Assembly (NCBI GenBank): GCA_964106645.2
Contig: OZ067039.1
DNA from: Podarcis pityusensis
Lineage: Eukaryota
Reading direction: 5' to 3' (one strand)
Length of the DNA: 64,000 bases
Numbering within the stretch: position 1 is the first letter of the stretch; every line of letters begins with the position of its first letter. Below the pieces are notes generated by a model. The model was not told the DNA's origin. It saw only the letters and a program-made list of their open reading frames with translations, and made no database searches. A program made the position numbers and the translations under genes. Below, piece by piece: positions 5,721 through 57,169 of the stretch.

Positions 5721-5856
5721 CACTGTTTCTCAAACTTGGGTCTTCGGTTGTTGTTGGACTACAACTCCCATCATCCCTATCTAGAAGGAGCAGTGTTCAG
5801 GGGTGATTGGAGTTGTAGTCCAACAACAGCTGGAGACCCAAGTTTGGGAAACACTG
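5721..5856. mobile_element. hAT-like palindromic MITE
   Basis: Near-perfect fold-back with GGACTACAACTCC...GGAGTTGTAGTCC. Related degenerate pieces lie at ~5290-5372 and ~5880-5975. Confidence 0.8.
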
Positions 5857-7989: not shown

Positions 7990-8125
7990 CAGCCTCTCAA
8001 CCCGTGGGTCCCCAGATGTTGTTGAACTACAACTCCTATCACCCCTAGCTAGCAAGGCCAGAGCTCAGGGATGATGGGAGTTGTAGTCCAACAACATCTG
8101 GGGACCCATAGGTTGAGAACTGCTG
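7990..8125. mobile_element. hAT-like palindromic MITE
   Basis: Long inverted repeat of the same family as 5721 and 55304; imperfect 8-bp TSD ctctagtc/gtttagtc. Confidence 0.8.
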
Positions 8126-15614: not shown

Positions 15615-15620
15615 TATAAA
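15615..15620 (+). promoter_or_regulatory. TATA box of the retrotransposon promoter
   Basis: TATAAATATAAGGGG about 55 bp inside the inferred left end, followed by a nearly ATG-free leader. Confidence 0.6.
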
Positions 15621-16160
15621 TATAAGGGGCCAGAGGTTGGACTTCCTCTTGGCCGTTTTGCTTCGGATCAGGAGAGACGGTTGTATTTCTGAGCTTATTT
15701 GACTTCTACTTTCGAATTCCTTGGGCCTAGGTTTAAAAATCTTCCCTTTTTCCCTCGTGCTGCTCCGTATTTGATTTTCCTTCCCAAATCCCCTTCCCCT
15801 CCCCACCCCCCCATCCCGTGTGTATTAATTAATCCCTCATTTTAGTTATATATTTAGAGGAAGTTTTTAACGCCTAGGCTAGAGGGTGGGTACCCCCCCC
15901 CGGCCTTGGGGCCTGCCCCTGTTAGGGCCCGGCAGCCTGATTCCCGGGCGGCGGCCGCTGGCTGTTGGCCGGGCTCCAGCCACTTGTTAAGGTGGGAGGC
16001 CTGCAGCGAGCCGCCCAGGCCTCGCGGAAATTTTCTTGAATTTTAACAATAATAATAATAATATATAGAAATAAATAGAATCCTCCTCTTACCTTTCGCG
16101 GTTTTCCTGGTGCCGTGGGGGGAAGGTGCCTTGGTTTGGCCCCTAACCAGGGCCGCGGCA

Positions 16161-16420
16161 GCGCCCGCCATTTAAGGGGCACCCTTCACGGACCTCGTGG
16201 GTGCAGGGCTGCTTCGGGGAGGAATTGCCTTCCCCCGGTTTCGGCCGCTCGCTGCGAGAGCGGCTGAATTGTTAAAGGGTAGCGGCGGCTGCAGTGCGGC
16301 CAAGTTAGCGGCGGCCGGGCCGGGGCCAGGGCTCCTTGCGTGCCCGGCCTCTCCGTTAGGTTTGCGGGGCCGCCTCCCCTGGGGCTTGGGGCTGCGGCTC
16401 GTTGTTGCGCCCGCCATTTT
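16161..16420 (+). promoter_or_regulatory. Two YY1-like motifs
   Basis: GCGCCCGCCATTT occurs at 16161-16173 and 16407-16419; CGCCATTTT is the YY1 consensus. Confidence 0.55.
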
Positions 16421-16486
16421 CTGCTTCTTCGTGGCGCATCTCCGGGGGAGGAGGATTTCTCCACGGTGGTTGATTTTTTCCCTGCT

Positions 16487-16628
16487 CGCCCTCCGGTGGC
16501 CGTGCAGGGTTATTGCAGCTGAGCAGTGTGCCGGCGCTCCCCCTGGTGGCTCGGCTTGCTAGTGCACCTTCTCCAGTGTGAGTTTCGGGCTGGCTGGTGC
16601 CCCCTGCTGGCCGGGCTCAGGAAGTGCA
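16487..16628 (-). promoter_or_regulatory. Three co-oriented CTCF motifs with upstream module
   Basis: Cores CGCCCTCCGGTGGC (16487), CTCCCCCTGGTGGC (16537) and TGCCCCCTGCTGGC (16598), each followed 13-14 nt later by TGCA. Confidence 0.7.
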
Positions 16629-16972
16629 TTTATTTTATTTTAATTTTTAAGTTTATTTGATTTTATATGCTTAAAATAAAATAAAAAAATAAAAATAAAT
16701 AAATAAATAAATAAATAAGAAGAAGAAGAACAAGTACATAAAACAAATATAAACAAATAAGTAAAAGTAATAAAAAATAAAATAAAATAAATAAATAATC
16801 GAAATATATATATATATATAAAAAAATCATTCTGTTTTTTGCATTTATTTAGTTTTAATTTATCTGACAGCGATTGGTGTAATTCCTTCACTTCTGTAAA
16901 TTATTTAGTTGCGTTCAGCAGCGCCGCCTGGCTGCGGCAATCGTTAATTCTCATTTTGATCCAATAGCAGGT

Positions 16973-18497
16973 ATGCCTCCTAAGAAAGCCGCTGCTCGTC
17001 CCGCCTCGGCCTCTGGTGCTAAACGGCCTATTAGAGGTCCATCGCAGGCGCTTCGCTCTCCTACCCCAAGGCAACCGGTGGGACGGGTGCAATCCTTGGT
17101 AGAAAGTATGGCCGGCAATCCAGCAGCATTGTCTCGCTTCGCAGCCGAAATGGATGGTTTCCTGCAACACTGCTCTGCACAGCCTTCCACGTCTGGGAGG
17201 CGTCCTTGCCCAGTAGTGGCATCATCTCCAGCGTCGCCGTCCTCTAGTGAAGAAGGGAGAGATGGCTCATTATCTAGGGGTTTGATAGCCGATTCCCAGC
17301 TTGCTCGGTCCCGTGTCTTACCTGCTGCTCGCGGCCGTTCGCGGAGGCCGCGCCGTTCCGCTGGGAGGGCCGCGGGAAGGCAAAACCCCTTGGCCCCTTC
17401 CACCCGCCGAGCTGTGCGCACCCAACCTTCGGATGAGGTGGCATCGGGTTCAGGCCTATCACTGGTTGTTTCTCCTCAGTCTGCTCCAGGTACATCACAG
17501 CTGAGCCCTGATTCTGAGTCTTCCATTGAGGACAGCTTGCCGGTTCCCGCCAGGAAGTCTTCGGGCGGAAAACGTCGCCGCAGAAGGTCTTCCCGGAAAC
17601 ATGCCAAGCGAAGGAGGGGTGAATCATCTTCCTCGTATTCTGGTACGTCATCCTCCAGTTCTGATGATGAGTCTGGCAATTCCAGGGAACTTTATTGGGG
17701 TTTTGGAGAATCGGCCTCGGGATTGCCTCGGTGGGCTTGGGATCGGAGGGCCAACACGCACCGCGCAAGGTATGGGGCGGTCCAGGAGTGCAGGGATGGC
17801 GTGTTGGTGCCTGACGTTAAAGTCTCTACCAATTCTGCTAGGGACATTATCCCTGGTTTGCATTTGTCAACAAAACTGCGGTCCAGGATTCTGAACGGCC
17901 GTTATGTGGACATCTTCAAATTGGCCCCTCCTTCGGAGGACCAGGAGGCAGGGAAGTCGCCCAAAAAACGCCAGGGCACTCCCTCAGTAGACAGGACTTT
18001 CGAGCATTGGCTCGATTGTTTCCAGGTCTTTGCTGGTGTGGTGGTGGCAGCTTACCCTCGGAGATCTCTTCATTTGATAGTGTACTTGTCTATTGTTCGC
18101 TCTGCTTTCACCAAAGCTGGTGAGAAAGCTGCGATAAAATATGATGAGAACTTCAGGCGCCGCGCCGCTAGGATCCCCTCAGCACGATGGGATCGTAAGG
18201 ATCTCGACGTGTGGACCACCCATGTAGCTCCACATCGATAAGAAAGCGCCGGAGCAACAGAAGTCGAGGACTGGGGCGTTTAGGACTAGCCGTCGTTTCC
18301 CATGCTGGGATTATAATAAGGGTTCTTGTCAGCGGCAGGGGTGTAGGTATGCCCACATTTGTGAGAAATGCAATGGTTCGCATCCTGCCTCCTCTTGTTT
18401 TGGCAATCGGCGGCCCTTTCGTGGCGGAAAAGGGGGTTCTCAGCAAACCCCCAAGCAAAACACCCCTCTCGCTCCTGCCCCAGGCACAGGAAAATGA
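16973..18497 (+). CDS. Gag-like ORF1 of the YR retrotransposon, frameshifted at ~18230
   Basis: 422-aa ORF (Ser/Arg-rich N-terminus; I..GRYVD, W..CF..F, YDE.FR motifs) stops at 18241. The CCCH+CCHC zinc fingers (CWDYNKGSCQRQGCRYAHICEKCNGSHPASSC) continue in another frame, 18231-18497. Confidence 0.85.
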
Positions 18498-18510
18498 GCT
18501 TTTGTCAGCC

Positions 18511-20103
18511 ATGGCTCATACCCCTGTTCGGTTGCCGGCCCTGCAGCTTTGGTTGCAGTCTTATCCTAACAGGGATGCTGCAGGTTATTTGAGGGATGGT
18601 TTTTCTGTTGGTTTCCGGATTCCGGTAGCCATGCCTCCCGTGGCACGGAATCCGTCTAACCAAAAATCGATTCGTGAGCTACCTGACGTCGCTCGCAGAA
18701 AGATTGCAAAGGAGCTGGCCATGCATCGGATGGCCGGTCCTTTTGATGCCCCTCCCTTTCATAATTTGCATGTATCCCCATTGGGTATTGTCCCAAAGAA
18801 GGCTCCGGGTGAATTTCGTTTAATTCATAATTTGTCACATCCTAGGGGTACTTCAGTCAATGATGTTATCCCCCCGGAGCTTTGCTCCGTGAAGTATGCA
18901 TCTCTTGATCAGGCGATCAAGATGATTAGGAAGTTCGGCCACGCTGCCCTATTGGCAAAATGCGACATTGAGTCGGCATTCCGCCTTCTCCCAATTCACC
19001 CGGATGATTTTTGGCTACTGGGTTTTCAGTTTGAGGGCAAGTATTACTTTGACAAAGCCATGCCTATGGGTTGTTCAATAGCCTGCGCTGCCTTTGAATC
19101 ATTTAGCACCTTTCTCGAGTGGGCCCTTAAATTTAAAACAGGATTGGGCGGGGTCACGCATTATTTGGATGATTTTTTATTGGCCTCGGCTCACGATACT
19201 GGTGAGTGCTCGGTGTTGCTACAGGCCTTTGCTGACCTTACGCAGGAGCTGGGGGTTCCGCTTGCTTCGGAAAAGACCGAGGGTCCATCTACTCAGCTTA
19301 CGTATTTGGGTATCCTGTTGGATACGGTTGCCCAGACTTCTAGTTTGCCAATGGACAAGCTAGTAGCCTTGAAGAAGGTCATAGAGGAACTGCTCCCTTT
19401 GAAGAAAGCATCTCTTCTACAAATTCAGTCATTGTTGGGGCATCTGAATTTCGCGTGCAGGGTGGTGGCGCCTGGGCGCCCTTTCTGTTCGCGCCTGGCT
19501 CGCCTCACTGTGGGATTGAGGGCCCCTCATCATAGGGTGCGCCTATCTAAGGAGGTGAGGGCCGATCTTTCCATATGGCTGGAATTCCTGGAGGAATTCA
19601 ATGGGGTGTCGTTATGGCAAGACACTTTAAACTTGCAAAATGATTTTCAGGTACAATCGGATGCTGCAGGTTCCCTGGGTTTTGGTCTTTACTGGAAGGG
19701 GCGGTGGTGCGCAGAGCGTTGGCCGCCTGAGTGGCAGGGAGGAGAAATTACACGGGACCTAACATTTCTCGAGTTTTTTCCCATTGCAGTGGCTGTGCAT
19801 TTGTGGGTCGAGGAATTCAGGAACCGTCGTGTCTGCTTCTGGACCGATAATCAGGCGGTGGTGAACGTGCTGGCGAAACTGTCATCACGCTCTCCCAGGG
19901 TGTCGGCCTTATTGCGGGCCTTCGTGTTGCATTGTTTACGTCATAATATAGTGTTCTCTGCACGTTTTATTCCTGGGGTGTCTAACGAAATTGCTGATGC
20001 TCTGTCCCGTTTTCAGATGGAGCGGTTCAGACTTCTGGTTCCAGAGGCGCGGATACGTCCGGAGTATTTCCCGGATCATCTCTGGAACCTTGGCAGCAAT
20101 TAG
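18511..20103 (+). CDS. Reverse transcriptase / RNase H (DIRS/Ngaro pol)
   Basis: Motifs SPLGIVPKK, FRLIHNLS, KCDIESAFR, MPMG, YLDDF, YLGI; RNase H SDA...LE...TDN...ADALSR. ATG in GCCATGG context (the frame is open from before 18211). Confidence 0.95.
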   Translation: MAHTPVRLPALQLWLQSYPNRDAAGYLRDGFSVGFRIPVAMPPVARNPSNQKSIRELPDVARRKIAKELAMHRMAGPFDAPPFHNLHVSPLGIVPKKAPGEFRLIHNLSHPRGTSVNDVIPPELCSVKYASLDQAIKMIRKFGHAALLAKCDIESAFRLLPIHPDDFWLLGFQFEGKYYFDKAMPMGCSIACAAFESFSTFLEWALKFKTGLGGVTHYLDDFLLASAHDTGECSVLLQAFADLTQELGVPLASEKTEGPSTQLTYLGILLDTVAQTSSLPMDKLVALKKVIEELLPLKKASLLQIQSLLGHLNFACRVVAPGRPFCSRLARLTVGLRAPHHRVRLSKEVRADLSIWLEFLEEFNGVSLWQDTLNLQNDFQVQSDAAGSLGFGLYWKGRWCAERWPPEWQGGEITRDLTFLEFFPIAVAVHLWVEEFRNRRVCFWTDNQAVVNVLAKLSSRSPRVSALLRAFVLHCLRHNIVFSARFIPGVSNEIADALSRFQMERFRLLVPEARIRPEYFPDHLWNLGSN

Positions 20104-20987
20104 TTTTGCAGGGAGTAGCGGCTTCGGTTTCACCTTCTACCCTTAGATCTTACACAAAGGCTTGGACCGATTTTTTGACATTTACGCGCCAGACAACCTC
20201 TAATTTAGAGGGTGTTCCCCCCACCTCCTCGCAGGTGTTGAGCTATTTAGCACATTTATTTCAGTTAGGGCGGGCAGCAAGAACTATTAAGATACAGGCG
20301 GCTGCCATAGCCTTTTTCTGTAAGACATTTTATGATAAGGACCCTTGTGCGAGGTTTATAGTGCGCAGGGCCCTCGAAGGCTGGAGCAGACTTCGTCCGT
20401 CCCAGCCGGCCTCACGGTGCCCCATTTCCTTTGATTTGTTGAGTAGGATGCGCAAGAGGCTGCGGGTGGTATGCTGGTCGGGGTACGAGGCTCGCCTTTT
20501 CTCGGCTGCCTTTTCTATTGCCTTTTTTGGAGCCCTGAGAGTGGGTGAGCTGGTATTTGAAGATATCAGAGATGGTCGTTCCAGGGGCCTTTTGCTCAGG
20601 GACGTGCAGCTAACCCCCGCAGAATTGAAAATCACAGTCAGAAATTCTAAGACTGATCAGAAGGGTAGGGGTGCCGTCATTCGTCTCCCTGCTACGGGAG
20701 AGGCAGGCCCTTGCCCTGTGAAGGATGTCAGTAAATACTTAGCAGTACGCGTCACGGGTGATGGGCCTCTGCTTAGACATGAAAATGGGTCGCCCCTAAC
20801 GAGACGCCAGTTTGCACAGGTGATGCGTAAAGCGATTCTCGCTTGTGACGGCACGTCGGATGGTTTCGCCCCTCACTCCTTTAGGATTGGGGCCGCAACA
20901 ACGGCTGCTCATTGGGGTTTGTCGGCCGCTAGGATAAAGGATTTGGGGCGCTGGAAGTCGAATGCCTTTCGGGGCTATGTTCGTTAG
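19998..20987 (+). CDS. Tyrosine recombinase (lambda-integrase family); no initiating ATG
   Basis: Catalytic set intact: GALRVGEL (R), SKTDQ (K), HSFRIG (HxxR), GRWKS (W), GYVR (Y). The frame is open from 19998 and overlaps the end of RNase H. Confidence 0.93.
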   Translation, partial: CSVPFSDGAVQTSGSRGADTSGVFPGSSLEPWQQLVLQGVAASVSPSTLRSYTKAWTDFLTFTRQTTSNLEGVPPTSSQVLSYLAHLFQLGRAARTIKIQAAAIAFFCKTFYDKDPCARFIVRRALEGWSRLRPSQPASRCPISFDLLSRMRKRLRVVCWSGYEARLFSAAFSIAFFGALRVGELVFEDIRDGRSRGLLLRDVQLTPAELKITVRNSKTDQKGRGAVIRLPATGEAGPCPVKDVSKYLAVRVTGDGPLLRHENGSPLTRRQFAQVMRKAILACDGTSDGFAPHSFRIGAATTAAHWGLSAARIKDLGRWKSNAFRGYVR

Positions 20988-21603
20988 TACTTTCGGACTC
21001 TTATACTGTTTGTTTTTGTTTATCTCAGGTCTGGCGGCTGTTCGCATCTGGTTGGTGGGGCACAGCATCATCCATTGGGCTGCTGTCGCAGCACGGCAGT
21101 CCAGGCTGGGTCCAGGTCTCGGCTTCCCTCCACATGTGCAGCTGTCATGGCTGTCCAGACGGGGTATGCGCTGGTCAGAGTTCCTGCCGAGGATTCGGAG
21201 GCAGTTGCTCTTGGAAGGGCAGCCCACGGCTATTGTGGTGCAGCTGGGTGAGAACGACCTGGTATCCGTGGACTGTTTATCACTTCGTGCTGCAATTTTG
21301 AGTGACTTGGAGATGCTGCGAACATTGGTGCCGTCAGCTAAAATATTTTGGTCTAAGCTATTGCAACGCCGCATTTGGATGGGCAGTCGTTGCCCGGCAG
21401 CCACAGAAAGGGCCAGAAAACGCATCAATTCTGCGGTGGCTAAGAAGATTTCTGAGTTGGGTGGTGATGTGATTTCCCATCCGGTGATTCGTTTTCAAGC
21501 TGCGCCCCTTTTTAGGGCTGATGGTGTGCACCTCTCTGCCTCAGGGAATGAGGTTTGGCTGGGTGCAGTGGTGGCCAAGCTGAGGGCTTGGTTGGGGCTG
21601 TGA
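20962..21603 (+). CDS. SGNH/GDSL hydrolase (esterase-like) ORF
   Basis: Block I WLVGHS, block II RRGM, block III QLGEND, block V DGVHL. The domain probably begins at the acceptor at 21029. Confidence 0.88.
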   Translation: MPFGAMFVSTFGLLYCLFLFISGLAAVRIWLVGHSIIHWAAVAARQSRLGPGLGFPPHVQLSWLSRRGMRWSEFLPRIRRQLLLEGQPTAIVVQLGENDLVSVDCLSLRAAILSDLEMLRTLVPSAKIFWSKLLQRRIWMGSRCPAATERARKRINSAVAKKISELGGDVISHPVIRFQAAPLFRADGVHLSASGNEVWLGAVVAKLRAWLGL

Positions 21604-21940
21604 GTGGTTTGGCGGTGAGCTGGAGGCTCCATGGCGGTTAGGCATTGGTTAAAGTGGTGCTTGGAGGGGTAAGTGCCTACCCCTCCAAATGATGCGAAGG
21701 GAATTCCGTTAAAGGAATCCAGGGGCTTGCCATTCATTTCGTCCTTGTCCCTGGCATCGGACTTGGGCCGTGCAAGCCCCAAAGGAACATGAGGGTGAGA
21801 AGTGAGGGACTGATGCCCAGCTTCATTTTCTCACCCAATACTTGTTTCCCACTCTGGCTTCCGCTGGTGTCCGGAATGCCAGCTCTGTCCCTGAGGGCAT
21901 GGACAGATAGTCATAACCAATGCCTAAGCAACCACTCACA
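21599..21940 (+). other. Predicted multibranch structured RNA in the retrotransposon 3' region
   Basis: Perfect long-range stems of 11 bp (21599-21609/21930-21940) and 14 bp (21638-21651/21914-21927) enclose at least five hairpins. Confidence 0.7.
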
Positions 21941-21951
21941 TTTTTTGTATG

Positions 21952-21957
21952 AATAAA
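21952..21957 (+). terminator. Polyadenylation signal of the element
   Basis: AATAAA directly after the structured region, with a GT/T-rich tract at ~22000. Confidence 0.6.
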
Positions 21958-22554
21958 GTTGTGGCCAAAATTATGCCAAAAAACCTAAACAAAAATTGAT
22001 GTGTGAAGTGTGATTTATTTGGGGGGTGGCAATTGTGGGACTCAACACGCAATTGCTTCAGAGTCAAGTAGAAGCTCTTTATCTCATGATCTCTTGTTTG
22101 CAATTCAGCAGGATGCTGGCTTAATTACAGAATGTGATGGTGGCTGAGTTTACAGCCCACCAGATGGTTATGTCAGTTGTTAAAAGCGCAAGATCCCCAC
22201 CCATCCACTGGAATGTTGTTACAGCTCTCCTACGCTGGATTGGCATTAGTTAAGATGGCTGCTTTGTTTAGCAGTGAATGAAGTTAAGGAAAGATGGTGA
22301 GGTTTGCTGCACTTTTGTAGATGCCAAATGTGCAACAATATGGAGGATGCCATAGGTTGTGTGGTTTCAGCTCCCTTAGGAAAGCTGGAATTTAGATGAA
22401 GCTGCTTGGAAAAATTTGCAACACAGTGGCAAGGTGCATAATAAAGGTTAAAGGCATAGCCTGTATTGCCAGTACAATTTGCAAAAGGTGGCTTCTTGTA
22501 AAGGACAAGGCAATTTAGACCTGGTGCTGGACTTGCCGCACTAGACAGCCTATT

Positions 22555-24257: not shown

Positions 24258-24422
24258 GAAATTGTCCAGTAGCATCTTAGAGACCAATTAAGTTTGTTCT
24301 GGGTATAAGCTTTCATGCGCATGCACACTTCTTCAGATACAAAGTTGATCTGAAGAAGTGTGCATGTACATGAAAGCTTATACCCAGAAGAAACTTGGTC
24401 TCTAATTTTTGGGACAATTTTT
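24258..24422. mobile_element. Penelope-like element terminal sequence as an inverted pair, each arm with a hammerhead-like motif
   Basis: Arms ~24258-24338 and ~24348-24422; each carries CTGAAGA-AGTGTGCATGxxCAT-GAAAGCTTATAC. Confidence 0.7.
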
Positions 24423-54200: not shown

Positions 54201-55303
54201 GAACAAAATTCAGTGAATGAATCATTCATTTCTCAAGGATTAACTGGGTCATTATATTTAATCCTTCTCTAAACTGGTGGACATGTGTTCCGCTTGACTG
54301 TAACATTTTCACTGGATTTGTGTCACATTATGTTTACTTGCTTCTTAAAAGACTGAAAAACTAATGTGCTGTGAAAAACCAACTCTATTGCATTTTAAGA
54401 TCCATTACCTGATTTTTCTGTACACAAATATATATACTGTTTTAATGTACTTGCTGAGAACAGTAAGGAAGCACCACCACCAGGGACAAGTGCATAACTC
54501 CTAGTGCATGTGTGATCCAATTGTATGAAGGAGATAAATACAACAGTTCTAGCTTAAAATTAGACACAGCCCAATAATTGGTGATGGTGTCATGATTAGA
54601 CCTCTGATTCTTCCAATATCCTAATTTCTTGAAATATGTGGAGTCCCAAATTTTAATATATCCTTGAGAAAGCATCTGCAAAGGGTATTTAACAAGTCTT
54701 ATTTCTGAAACATTCACATCTCAGGGCAGCACCTACAGTCACGAGAAATTGACACTAAATTTATTTAGGAATGTTTTGTCATAGGACAGGCCCTCTGTGA
54801 GAGAAGGAGACCCTCATATGCTCTCTAGTGTTAATCTGGATTAGATATGGGTATGTCTTTATTAGGCTCTGCTCTTTTGCAATATCATTGTACCTATAAG
54901 TCCCCCATCTAGTAAATGTGGCCCACACCGCATAGAAAATATTATCTCTGAGAAATAATGAAAAAGCATACACTTGTAAACCAAAAATGATCAAAATTTG
55001 CAAAATTAATTCACTATACAGAATAACAGATTTTAATGCAAAAACTAAAAATTTAGAAACATATTGTTTCTGTTCAAGCGCTTAAAAAATCATTAGTATG
55101 GAAAGGTGGGGTTGGAACCCCATAATTTTTGTGATGTAGACCCTCTCCCCCAACAGCTACAGTTCTTAGCAAGGTGGAATGGGATCATGGCTTAGATACA
55201 ATTGGCGAGAGTCATGTGGTGGGATTTCTGGATTTCTTTAAGGGCACCCCTAACCATTTCTCCATAATCCAGCCCCCCCAATTTAATAAATAATAAATTA
55301 GAC

Positions 55304-55439
55304 CAGGCATAGGCAAACTCGGCCCTCCAGATATTTTGGGACTACAACTCCCACCGTCCCTGATCACTGGTCCTGTTAGCTAGGGATAATAGGAGTTGTA
55401 GTCCCAAAACATCTGGAGGGCCGAGTTTGCCTGTGCCTG
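55304..55439. mobile_element. hAT-like palindromic MITE
   Basis: CAGGCATAGGCAAACTCGGCCCTCCAGAT TIR; 8-bp TSD aattagac/gattagac. Confidence 0.9.
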
Positions 55440-57169
55440 GATTAGACAAATTAATGGAGGCTATCAGTGGCTACTAGTCTTCATAGCCATATGCTGCTTC
55501 CAGGATCAGATGCACCCAGCCTCTGAACACAGTTGCTGGGGATGGGGAATAACAGCAAGAGACTACTATTCCCACATGCCCTTGCTGTGAGCTGCCCATA
55601 AGCATCTGGTTAGCCACTGTCAGAAAGGGGTTGGGCTAGATTCGCCTTTAATCTGATCCAGCAGAGCTCTTCATGTATTCTTATGATTCAAAAAAGTACA
55701 CATACTTCTGTACTTCCTGGGATTATCTGGTGTTTTGGAACAGAAAGATTTGATATTTATATATTACTCATTTTTCTGAAAGGCTTACCACTGACACCTG
55801 AACATTCCCACAAATATACCACAAAAGCTAAATGCCATCACTCAAGTGAAAAATTCACACAAAATTTCAAATGCAGACACCAGTTGTTTGTGGAATGTTA
55901 CAGAATAGATTGTAGACATACTGAAACCTGCAGCCTGCCATTGCATCTCTCTTTCACTAAAAAGCGAAGAGAATGCAATTTATTGCAAATTCTATGTGTC
56001 GTTTATAAAAGTGCCCCAAATTTTCTTGTTTGCTTCAGTTGTAATTGGTTATTAAAACTGTAGGTTGGGCTGACCAAGCTATTCTTCCTGGGCTTATAAT
56101 TTGTTCACTATGTTTCACACCTGGACATAATAATTCATTCTTCTGTGCTGTACTGACTACTATCCCAGGTAACCTATGCTATTTCACAAATCCAAAGAAA
56201 ACAAGCATAATCTCCATGACCCAGATCAAGCTACTACAATAAGATAATTTTAACAATGTCTGCAGTACCTGCAGCACTTCTCGAAACACCATTTGAAATT
56301 CCCTTTTCATCGTTCTAATAACACCATTACTTGCTGTAGCAGAGCAACGAAGCTATGTAGTCCCTGATCCAAATCTCTACCCAAGGATGTTTTCCATCCC
56401 TGCTCAATATCAGATGCTATGGCATACTATGTGAATGCAGAAATGGTCCATCAAAGGTGCTTATTTTGCCATACAAAATATCATCAAGTGCTGTTGTACA
56501 GTACTCAGTTCAACTTGGACACACTACTTATAGTCTCTGCAGGCCATTTAACAATTTTGACTTTTGCTCTGAAGGAAATTGAAATCCAAAATAAGAGGTC
56601 AAATCAAAACAACAAACAAACAAACAACAAACCCAATTTGGCAAAAATAAATAAATAAAAGAGGGTTGGGGGAAGAGAAGTGGCATTATTTACAAAAGAT
56701 GATGGTTATGAACAATCTTAGCAGTGCCATTTTGGCACTGAAAAGACAACAAAAATGTATGTGCCTGCATATGCCAGAAACCCCAAAATTTTCATTCTAG
56801 CTTTCAGTAAAAAATTAAAAGATTAATGAAACATAACCAGTGAAATGAGGCACAACAATACCTTCTAAGTCAAGCTTTTCATACAAGCACACTAATATGT
56901 AACATCTAACCCCTATCCCCACTTGCTTGGCAGGCTAACGTGGTAGTGAATTAGAACCATGAATAGAAGAAGTGAATAACATCTGGCAGCTCCAATAATG
57001 CTGGCAGTGAAATTGCATTAGTGCTCTACTTTGCTCAATTATTCCACAGTTATATCACAAATATAAGTTGCAAGGAATAAAGCATAATTCCCAAACATAA
57101 TGCCCACAATGTAAAGTTACCAATTTCCTTTGTTATACAACGTGCCTATGGGGAATTTCCACTCTGTTC

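Follow-up and report, generated by a model that had tools for sequence, protein, structure and literature searches.

Predicted splicing from a gag donor and +1 frameshifting into pol in a Ngaro-like retrotransposon of Podarcis pityusensis

Identity and organization of the element

We analysed a 64,000-nucleotide stretch of DNA from Podarcis pityusensis (GenBank assembly GCA_964106645.2, contig OZ067039.1; hereafter the window), which carries what its encoded domains identify as a Ngaro-like tyrosine recombinase (YR) retrotransposon of the order DIRS with a frameshifted gag. Its features, listed below with a slash marking exon ends, point to a programme in which the recombinase and an SGNH/GDSL hydrolase would be expressed by splicing from one donor in gag, and pol by a +1 ribosomal frameshift.

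15615..22050, + strand: the copy of the Ngaro-like YR retrotransposon, with approximate limits estimated from composition and signals
16948..16970, + strand: weak acceptor-like site (TAG and CAG in tandem) before the gag ATG
16973..18241, + strand: main part of gag (ORF1), ATG at 16973
17487..17495, + strand: alternative phase-1 donor CAG/GTACAT, unused by the close gene models examined
17640..17648, + strand: phase-1 donor CTG/GTACGT, the predicted shared donor, last exon base 17642
18199..20103, + strand: frame of pol, encoding reverse transcriptase and RNase H and shifted by +1 from that of the gag C-terminus
18228..18497, + strand: C-terminal end of gag carrying the CCCH zinc knuckle; in the window copy its frame is not that of the main part
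18414..18422, + strand: predicted site of +1 ribosomal frameshifting from gag to pol, reading CCC_TTT_CGT in the frame of gag
18499..18508, + strand: earlier-proposed pol acceptor, weak, not conserved and likely due to chance
19994..20016, + strand: YR 3′ splice site, inside the RNase H codons A-D-A-L-S-R-F-Q (CTGAT ... CAG)
20017..20987, + strand: tyrosine recombinase exon (whole YR frame 19998-20987)
21007..21028, + strand: 3′ splice site for SGNH, in the spacer that follows YR; of all acceptors in the element it scores highest
21029..21603, + strand: SGNH/GDSL hydrolase exon (whole SGNH frame 20938-21603)

Pfam matches to RVT_1, Phage_integrase and Phage_int_SAM show reverse transcriptase/RNase H together with a recombinase instead of a DDE integrase, and the YR columns R, H-S-F-R and G-R-W are invariant in the alignment of relatives. 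The ORF 3′ of YR matches Lipase_GDSL_2 (E 2.8e-6), and the gag zinc knuckle is of the zf-CCCH_10 type (E 1.2e-4). Neither a DAM methyltransferase in pol nor a LAP2alpha domain in gag was found with Pfam at E ≤ 0.1; both mark DIRS-like elements according to PMC9210276, in which hydrolase-bearing Ngaro elements have the gene set seen here. The closest named homologues are lacertid lizard proteins, with at most 90% identity in pol. The outer signals of the copy are a TATA-like site at 15615 and an AATAAA at 21952, and the window copy, which may be truncated, has no terminal repeats, whether inverted repeats with the internal complementary region of the DIRS1-like type or split direct repeats (A1...B1 A2 B2). 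Both split direct repeats were seen in three of 28 related loci of at least 5 kb (L082, L083 and L067), and DIRS-54_XT likewise lacks them according to the same paper. A frameshift near 18230 (18228-18241) splits gag just 5′ of the zinc knuckle, and the pol, YR and SGNH frames are intact.

Related DNA was collected via a pol alignment, from which 80 of 457 metagenome loci and all 18 genome-collection loci were fetched; together with the window these form 86 families at 80% nucleotide identity. Thirteen distant matches among viral contigs were left aside. We take the fetched loci to be eukaryotic host DNA carried along. L081-L098 are Ngaro-like eukaryotic elements within contigs filed as prokaryotic metagenome-assembled genomes (e.g. 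Sedimenticola and Thiodiazotropha), and these are likely host contamination. Splice sites were scored with approximate human matrices rather than MaxEntScan, and the FastTree tree covers the homologues found in this analysis.

Conserved acceptors before the recombinase and the hydrolase

The initial annotation had described four acceptor-like sites, one before each ORF and all in the same phase, and had suggested a retrovirus-like splicing programme. These sites do end at 16970, 18508, 20016 and 21028, each in phase 1 to the downstream frame, and the gag and pol sites are, as had been stated, weaker than the other two: among the 296 AGs of the element, 21028 ranks first (10.8 bits) and 20016 eighth (8.7), whereas 18508 ranks 74th (3.2) and 16970 83rd (2.9). 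Since 287 of 4400 positions (6.5%) have a phase-1 AG of approximately 3 bits or better in the 13 nt before them, the sites of gag and pol do not exceed chance. Phase is conserved in relatives at the YR and SGNH acceptors, and at the YR acceptor the CAG is too, but neither the pol site nor the phase of the gag site is. Before gag ATGs in relatives the best AG falls in phases 0, 1 and 2 in 16, 12 and 8 cases, that is at random, so that the shared phase of the gag site carries no meaning; it is irrelevant in any case, because gag begins at its own ATG two bases downstream.

At the YR acceptor the Gln codon of the RNase H motif S-R-F-Q is written CAG in 63 of 64 Gln codons among the 74 families covering the site, against a CAG background of 47% and values of 38% and 43% in two other conserved Gln columns. 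The preceding Arg codon is CGN in 70 of 74 families (40-68% in other Arg columns). The Ser codon, TCN in 73 of 74, says less, because other Ser columns reach 96%. Where the acceptor CAG has been lost, an in-phase CAG is found at most three codons downstream in eight of 11 families, compared with nine of the 63 families that retain it (p=2e-4). These data indicate that the acceptor at 20016 is under selection at the nucleotide level. Of the three frames at this site, solely that in phase 1 opens into the long YR ORF (approximately 320-340 codons where intact), and it is mostly closed 6-13 codons upstream of the acceptor. The CTAAC claimed as a branch-point match does start at 19982, but it is kept in only five of 74 families and is thus not a conserved branch point, whereas 33 of 74 retain a CTGAY match 23 nt 5′ of the junction. 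In the window the first ATG of the YR frame lies at 20448, 114 codons after 20106, as had been noted. This ATG is residue 151 of the frame and the SAM-like N-domain occupies residues 42-114, so that the recombinase needs another entry.

For the hydrolase we scored 29 families, having set aside five of the 34 with an SGNH match because they lack the catalytic motif G[HDS]S. In 26 of the 29 the highest-scoring acceptor 5′ of this motif is in phase 1, for the most part at a distance of 14-29 nt. In the scored set this acceptor falls in the spacer that follows the YR stop.

A phase-1 donor in gag and matching public gene models

Both donor candidates that had been proposed in ORF1, CAG/GTACAT and CTG/GTACGT, are present and in phase 1, with last exon bases at 17489 and 17642 respectively. 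The donor test covered 35 families whose gag is closed and at least 300 aa long and whose pol lies in the +1 frame. Phase 1 holds the best donor of gag in 29, against 18.4 and 22.9 expected under two shuffles, and the best phase-1 score exceeds the shuffles by 1.5-1.7 bits, whereas that of phase 0 does not. In the pol control, phase 1 was best in 14 of 33. The donor at 17489 was rejected as the shared donor, since close gene models join at 17642. The predicted shared N-terminal exon is gag residues 1-223, a low-complexity region ending in a basic tract; we give even odds that it directs the recombinase and the hydrolase to the nucleus or the Gag particle.

Public gene models match the predicted junctions. 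Among the SGNH matches longer than 333 aa, 14 of 16 are Podarcis models in which the gag N-terminus runs into the hydrolase at a junction homologous to 17642→21028. Eight of the 14 have 413-416 aa, the predicted length being 414, another four begin at the second ATG of gag, and the last two are longer variants. The two remaining matches carry YR-derived N-termini. In the Podarcis models P0028 and P0040, YR-derived sequence equivalent to window 20448-20987 is joined to the SGNH acceptor, which suggests further donors inside YR. Of 120 YR matches, 29 have at least 380 aa, and 25 of these have a non-pol N-terminus. Eleven of the long YR models match the window gag by BLASTP, the match being strong for P0019 only. 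In P0019/P0135 the switch from gag to YR comes at the position homologous to 17642, just past the basic tract and a serine run, and the length is 544 aa against the 546 predicted. In addition, read-through gag models carry Gly (G/GT) exactly at the point where sister YR or SGNH models switch, the pairs sharing a junction being P0164/P0026 and P0187/P0067 and, homologously, P0165/P0007/P0134. A profile search added 139 new YR representatives, of which 63 have at least 380 aa and 59 of those a non-pol N-terminus. Lizards, a snake, frogs, a caecilian, molluscs and sea urchins all have long YR models with such N-termini, and the hosts among 20 of the 63 long representatives looked up are abalone, sea urchin, clams, oyster, lizards, snake and frogs. 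The suggestion that one donor fuses the gag N-terminus to every downstream ORF is supported, with the donor at 17642, for YR (20016) and SGNH (21028), but not for pol at 18508.

Entry into pol

The pol frame is +1 relative to gag in 53 of 61 families, and in 37 of 51 the gag/pol overlap contains TTT_CG in the gag frame, against null expectations of 20.4 (maximum 30 in 300 shuffles) and 18.4 in two sets of synonymous shuffles and 7.9 in codon-order shuffles. It is the most over-represented 5-mer of the overlap, and in a looser set it occurs in the gag frame in 42 of 74 families, as opposed to two and three in the other frames. Phe-Arg pairs are written TTT_CG in 44 of 71 cases in the overlap, compared with 23 of 73 in upstream gag and 76 of 229 in pol. 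The motif is present in all main clades of the tree, and 35 of 44 sites lie in the 5′ half of the +1 overlap. In close pol homologues the pol frame reads P-F-[V/A/G/E], as the motif predicts, in 8/8 such readings. The motif is thus conserved beyond amino-acid need, the sequence criterion of PA-X-type sites. The open pol frame inside gag is also long (median 78 codons against approximately 58-64 under synonymous shuffles; p=0.02), which counts for little, because gag composition explains most of it.

The alternative that survives best has all downstream ORFs, pol included, reached from the one donor through same-phase acceptors, the pol acceptor being 18508 or another site in the overlap. A splice to 18508 would give an open gagN-pol of 754 aa, and phase-1 CAG acceptors in the overlap are above shuffles (p=0.003, and p=2.5e-4 in another test), the best by 1.5-2.1 bits. 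TTT_CG is absent from 14 of 51 families, of which ten have a phase-1 acceptor of at least 6 bits, compared with 12 of the 37 that have the motif (p=0.025; p=0.057 for CAG only); with the CAG excess, this means that some families may splice to pol. The Zootoca model P0161 also joins gagN to pol, although inside pol and not at 18508, and it is the single such join at a 17642-type donor among the 120 pol matches listed. In the window, however, the TTT_CG motif is present and 18508 is weak. The proposed pol acceptor also lacks positional conservation in related families: an acceptor is impossible at the homologous codon in six of ten close pol homologues, including the five closest (Ser), and the Leu codon of L-A/G-x-T/S-P ends in A (AG) in seven of 23 families (by eye), below the 36% background. 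We regard splicing to every ORF as unlikely, and entry into pol by frameshift rather than by splicing as probable, if by a lesser degree than splicing to the 3′ genes. The ATG at 18511 was rejected as a pol start, Met being found in two of the 11 sequences shown, the window included.

Families without TTT_CG (L063, L055, L043, L051, L040, L048, L060, L030, L018 and L092) mostly have a phase-1 acceptor in the overlap and fall in several separate clades; L063 and L055 write the Phe-Arg pair as TTC_AG. On this pattern, lineages may have changed repeatedly between frameshift and splicing.

The proposed programme and other routes to YR and SGNH

We propose that the unspliced RNA would be both the genome and the message for Gag, a small fraction of ribosomes shifting +1 at CCC_UUU_CGU (18414) to give Gag-Pol. 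Splicing from 17642 to 20016 would remove 2374 nt and yield a 546-aa gagN-recombinase, and splicing from 17642 to 21028 would remove 3386 nt and yield a 414-aa gagN-hydrolase. We put the probability of this whole model, with the single gag donor, the two acceptors and the frameshift into pol, at roughly 0.7. Splicing to YR and SGNH very probably occurs in vivo, given where the sites lie, the phase they share, how well relatives conserve them and how public gene models match them.

According to Poulter and Butler 2015, as quoted in PMC13003380, the Ngaro recombinase is probably made by programmed frameshift. The acceptor-like sites would then be by-products of RNase H codons. The YR frame does run in -1 over the final 19-43 codons of pol, the site lies within a conserved RNase H motif that fixes several bases, and four of the 29 long YR models are fused to pol. 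A -1 slippery heptamer was found in only two of 46 pol/YR overlaps, on which count a conserved slippery site was rejected, and the fixation of CAG and CGN goes far beyond that of the control columns. Overlap coding does not explain this fixation, because in the YR frame the residue encoded across the junction is variable. Where the CAG has been lost, an in-phase one makes up for it, and the SGNH acceptor of the families scored lies after the YR stop. We therefore consider a frameshift into YR very improbable, and argue for splicing instead of the published guess. Least probable of all is that YR and SGNH start at their own ATG or near-cognate codons on internal-promoter or re-initiated RNAs, the fusions being annotation artefacts: an ATG does occur in the first 37 codons of 19 of the 46 intact YR ORFs (ten at codon 21, where the window has CTG), and 5′ of the SGNH acceptor the window has two in-frame ATGs, at 20962 and 20977. 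But no such ATG is present in 27 of the 46 YR ORFs, nor any before the motif in 12 of the 29 SGNH ORFs. The ATG at codon 21 is explained by the x-Trp codons of pol, A being the last base of the codon before in 10 of 25 families, close to the background rate, and both the donor excess and the acceptor conservation would be left unexplained.

Several observations weigh against the programme of splicing and frameshift that we favour, among them the in-frame ATGs just given and the families that lack TTT_CG, the CAG excess and the P0161 join described for pol. The gagN fusions are known here from gene models rather than RNA reads, and are in this respect consistent with splicing; all fusion proteins whose source was checked are models from annotation pipelines, which are able to join exons ab initio, and none of the 20 long YR representatives looked up is an intron-free, contig-called fusion (Logan, ENA, JGI). 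The family counts are not independent, because the families are related. The window copy itself may not be expressed, because its gag is broken and terminal repeats are absent; the programme would be a property of the family, of which this copy may be an inactive member.

Other observations in the window

In an otherwise GC-rich 5′ region, the stretch 16578-16970 is AT-rich and is edged by a donor-like AGT/GTGAGT (16577, 6.1 bits) and the TAG and CAG before gag; it may be an AT-rich 5′-untranslated-region intron ending at 16970. The CAG/GTATGC at 16970 itself scores 8.4 as a donor. Directly 3′ of the SGNH stop, a 28-nt imperfect palindrome (21661-21688) overlaps a strong donor-like GGG/GTAAGT at 21668. 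Elsewhere, short elements resembling miniature inverted-repeat transposable elements, with long terminal inverted arms, lie at 5721-5856, 7995-8118, 24290-24396 and 55303-55440, several of them belonging to one family.

Comparison with known systems and meaning

Simple retroviruses and gypsy-type errantiviruses make env from a spliced subgenomic RNA and pol by recoding. The proposed programme is like theirs in using unspliced RNA for Gag and Gag-Pol and spliced RNA for the 3′ genes. It differs in that the window donor lies 223 codons into gag, so that the 3′ products would be fusions with a long gag N-terminus, and in that the spliced genes encode a recombinase and a hydrolase, not env; the window element also has neither long terminal repeats nor a DDE integrase. 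Ty1 slips on CUU_AGG_C, and subgenomic gag splicing occurs in Ty1/Copia elements; in Copia it removes pol to give Gag alone. With Ty1/Ty3 and Copia the proposed programme shares a +1 shift from gag to pol and splicing that sets protein ratios, but the slip motif is unlike that of Ty1 and, unlike in Copia, gag would be joined to downstream enzymes.

A +1 gag-pol frameshift in Ty1 and Ty3 is also mentioned in PMC3498833. According to this paper, UUU_CGN is the +1 frameshift motif of influenza A PA-X (UCC_UUU_CGU), with an efficiency of approximately 1%, and according to PMC5052127 it is also that of amalgaviruses. As in PA-X sites, the motif lies in the zero frame, in the 5′ part of the +1 overlap and with an open +1 frame downstream, and an efficiency like that of PA-X would suit a Gag:Gag-Pol ratio. 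These cases are RNA viruses, whereas the window element is a cellular retrotransposon in which the E-site codon varies and slippage is predicted from sequence.

The Xenopus elements DIRS-53_XT and DIRS-54_XT have the same order of Gag, reverse transcriptase/RNase H, YR and SGNH, likewise without the methyltransferase and LAP2alpha domains (PMC9210276); compared with elements of this type, the window copy is without split direct repeats and has a broken gag. In the main text of PMC9210276, splicing, introns and frameshifts are unmentioned. Our literature search found no report of spliced Ngaro or DIRS expression or of UUU_CG in these elements; the original Goodwin/Poulter papers, Poulter and Butler 2015 and Repbase were outside its scope and could mention splicing. 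The element is thus of a known class, with what is apparently an undescribed and widely conserved expression programme.

To the question of how DIRS and Ngaro elements express overlapping ORFs that have no start codon, these data contribute exactly placed predicted junctions and a candidate slip site. The use of UUU_CG motifs in cellular gene expression was left open in PMC3498833, and Ngaro-like elements are candidates for it. Taken at its widest, the proposal is that Ngaro elements across animals share a retrovirus-like programme, with acceptors embedded in RNase H and before the hydrolase, one gag donor, a Gag-derived targeting tail, a PA-X-type +1 frameshift into pol (the first widespread cellular use) and repeated lineage swaps to a splice acceptor; we hold this to be somewhat short of an even chance. 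If the programme is real, the true recombinase and hydrolase proteins would be gag fusions, which is relevant to any biochemistry on them, and many animal gene models named 'xerD homolog' or 'uncharacterized' would be spliced retrotransposon products. As a gag fusion the hydrolase would travel with Gag, a first clue to its role.

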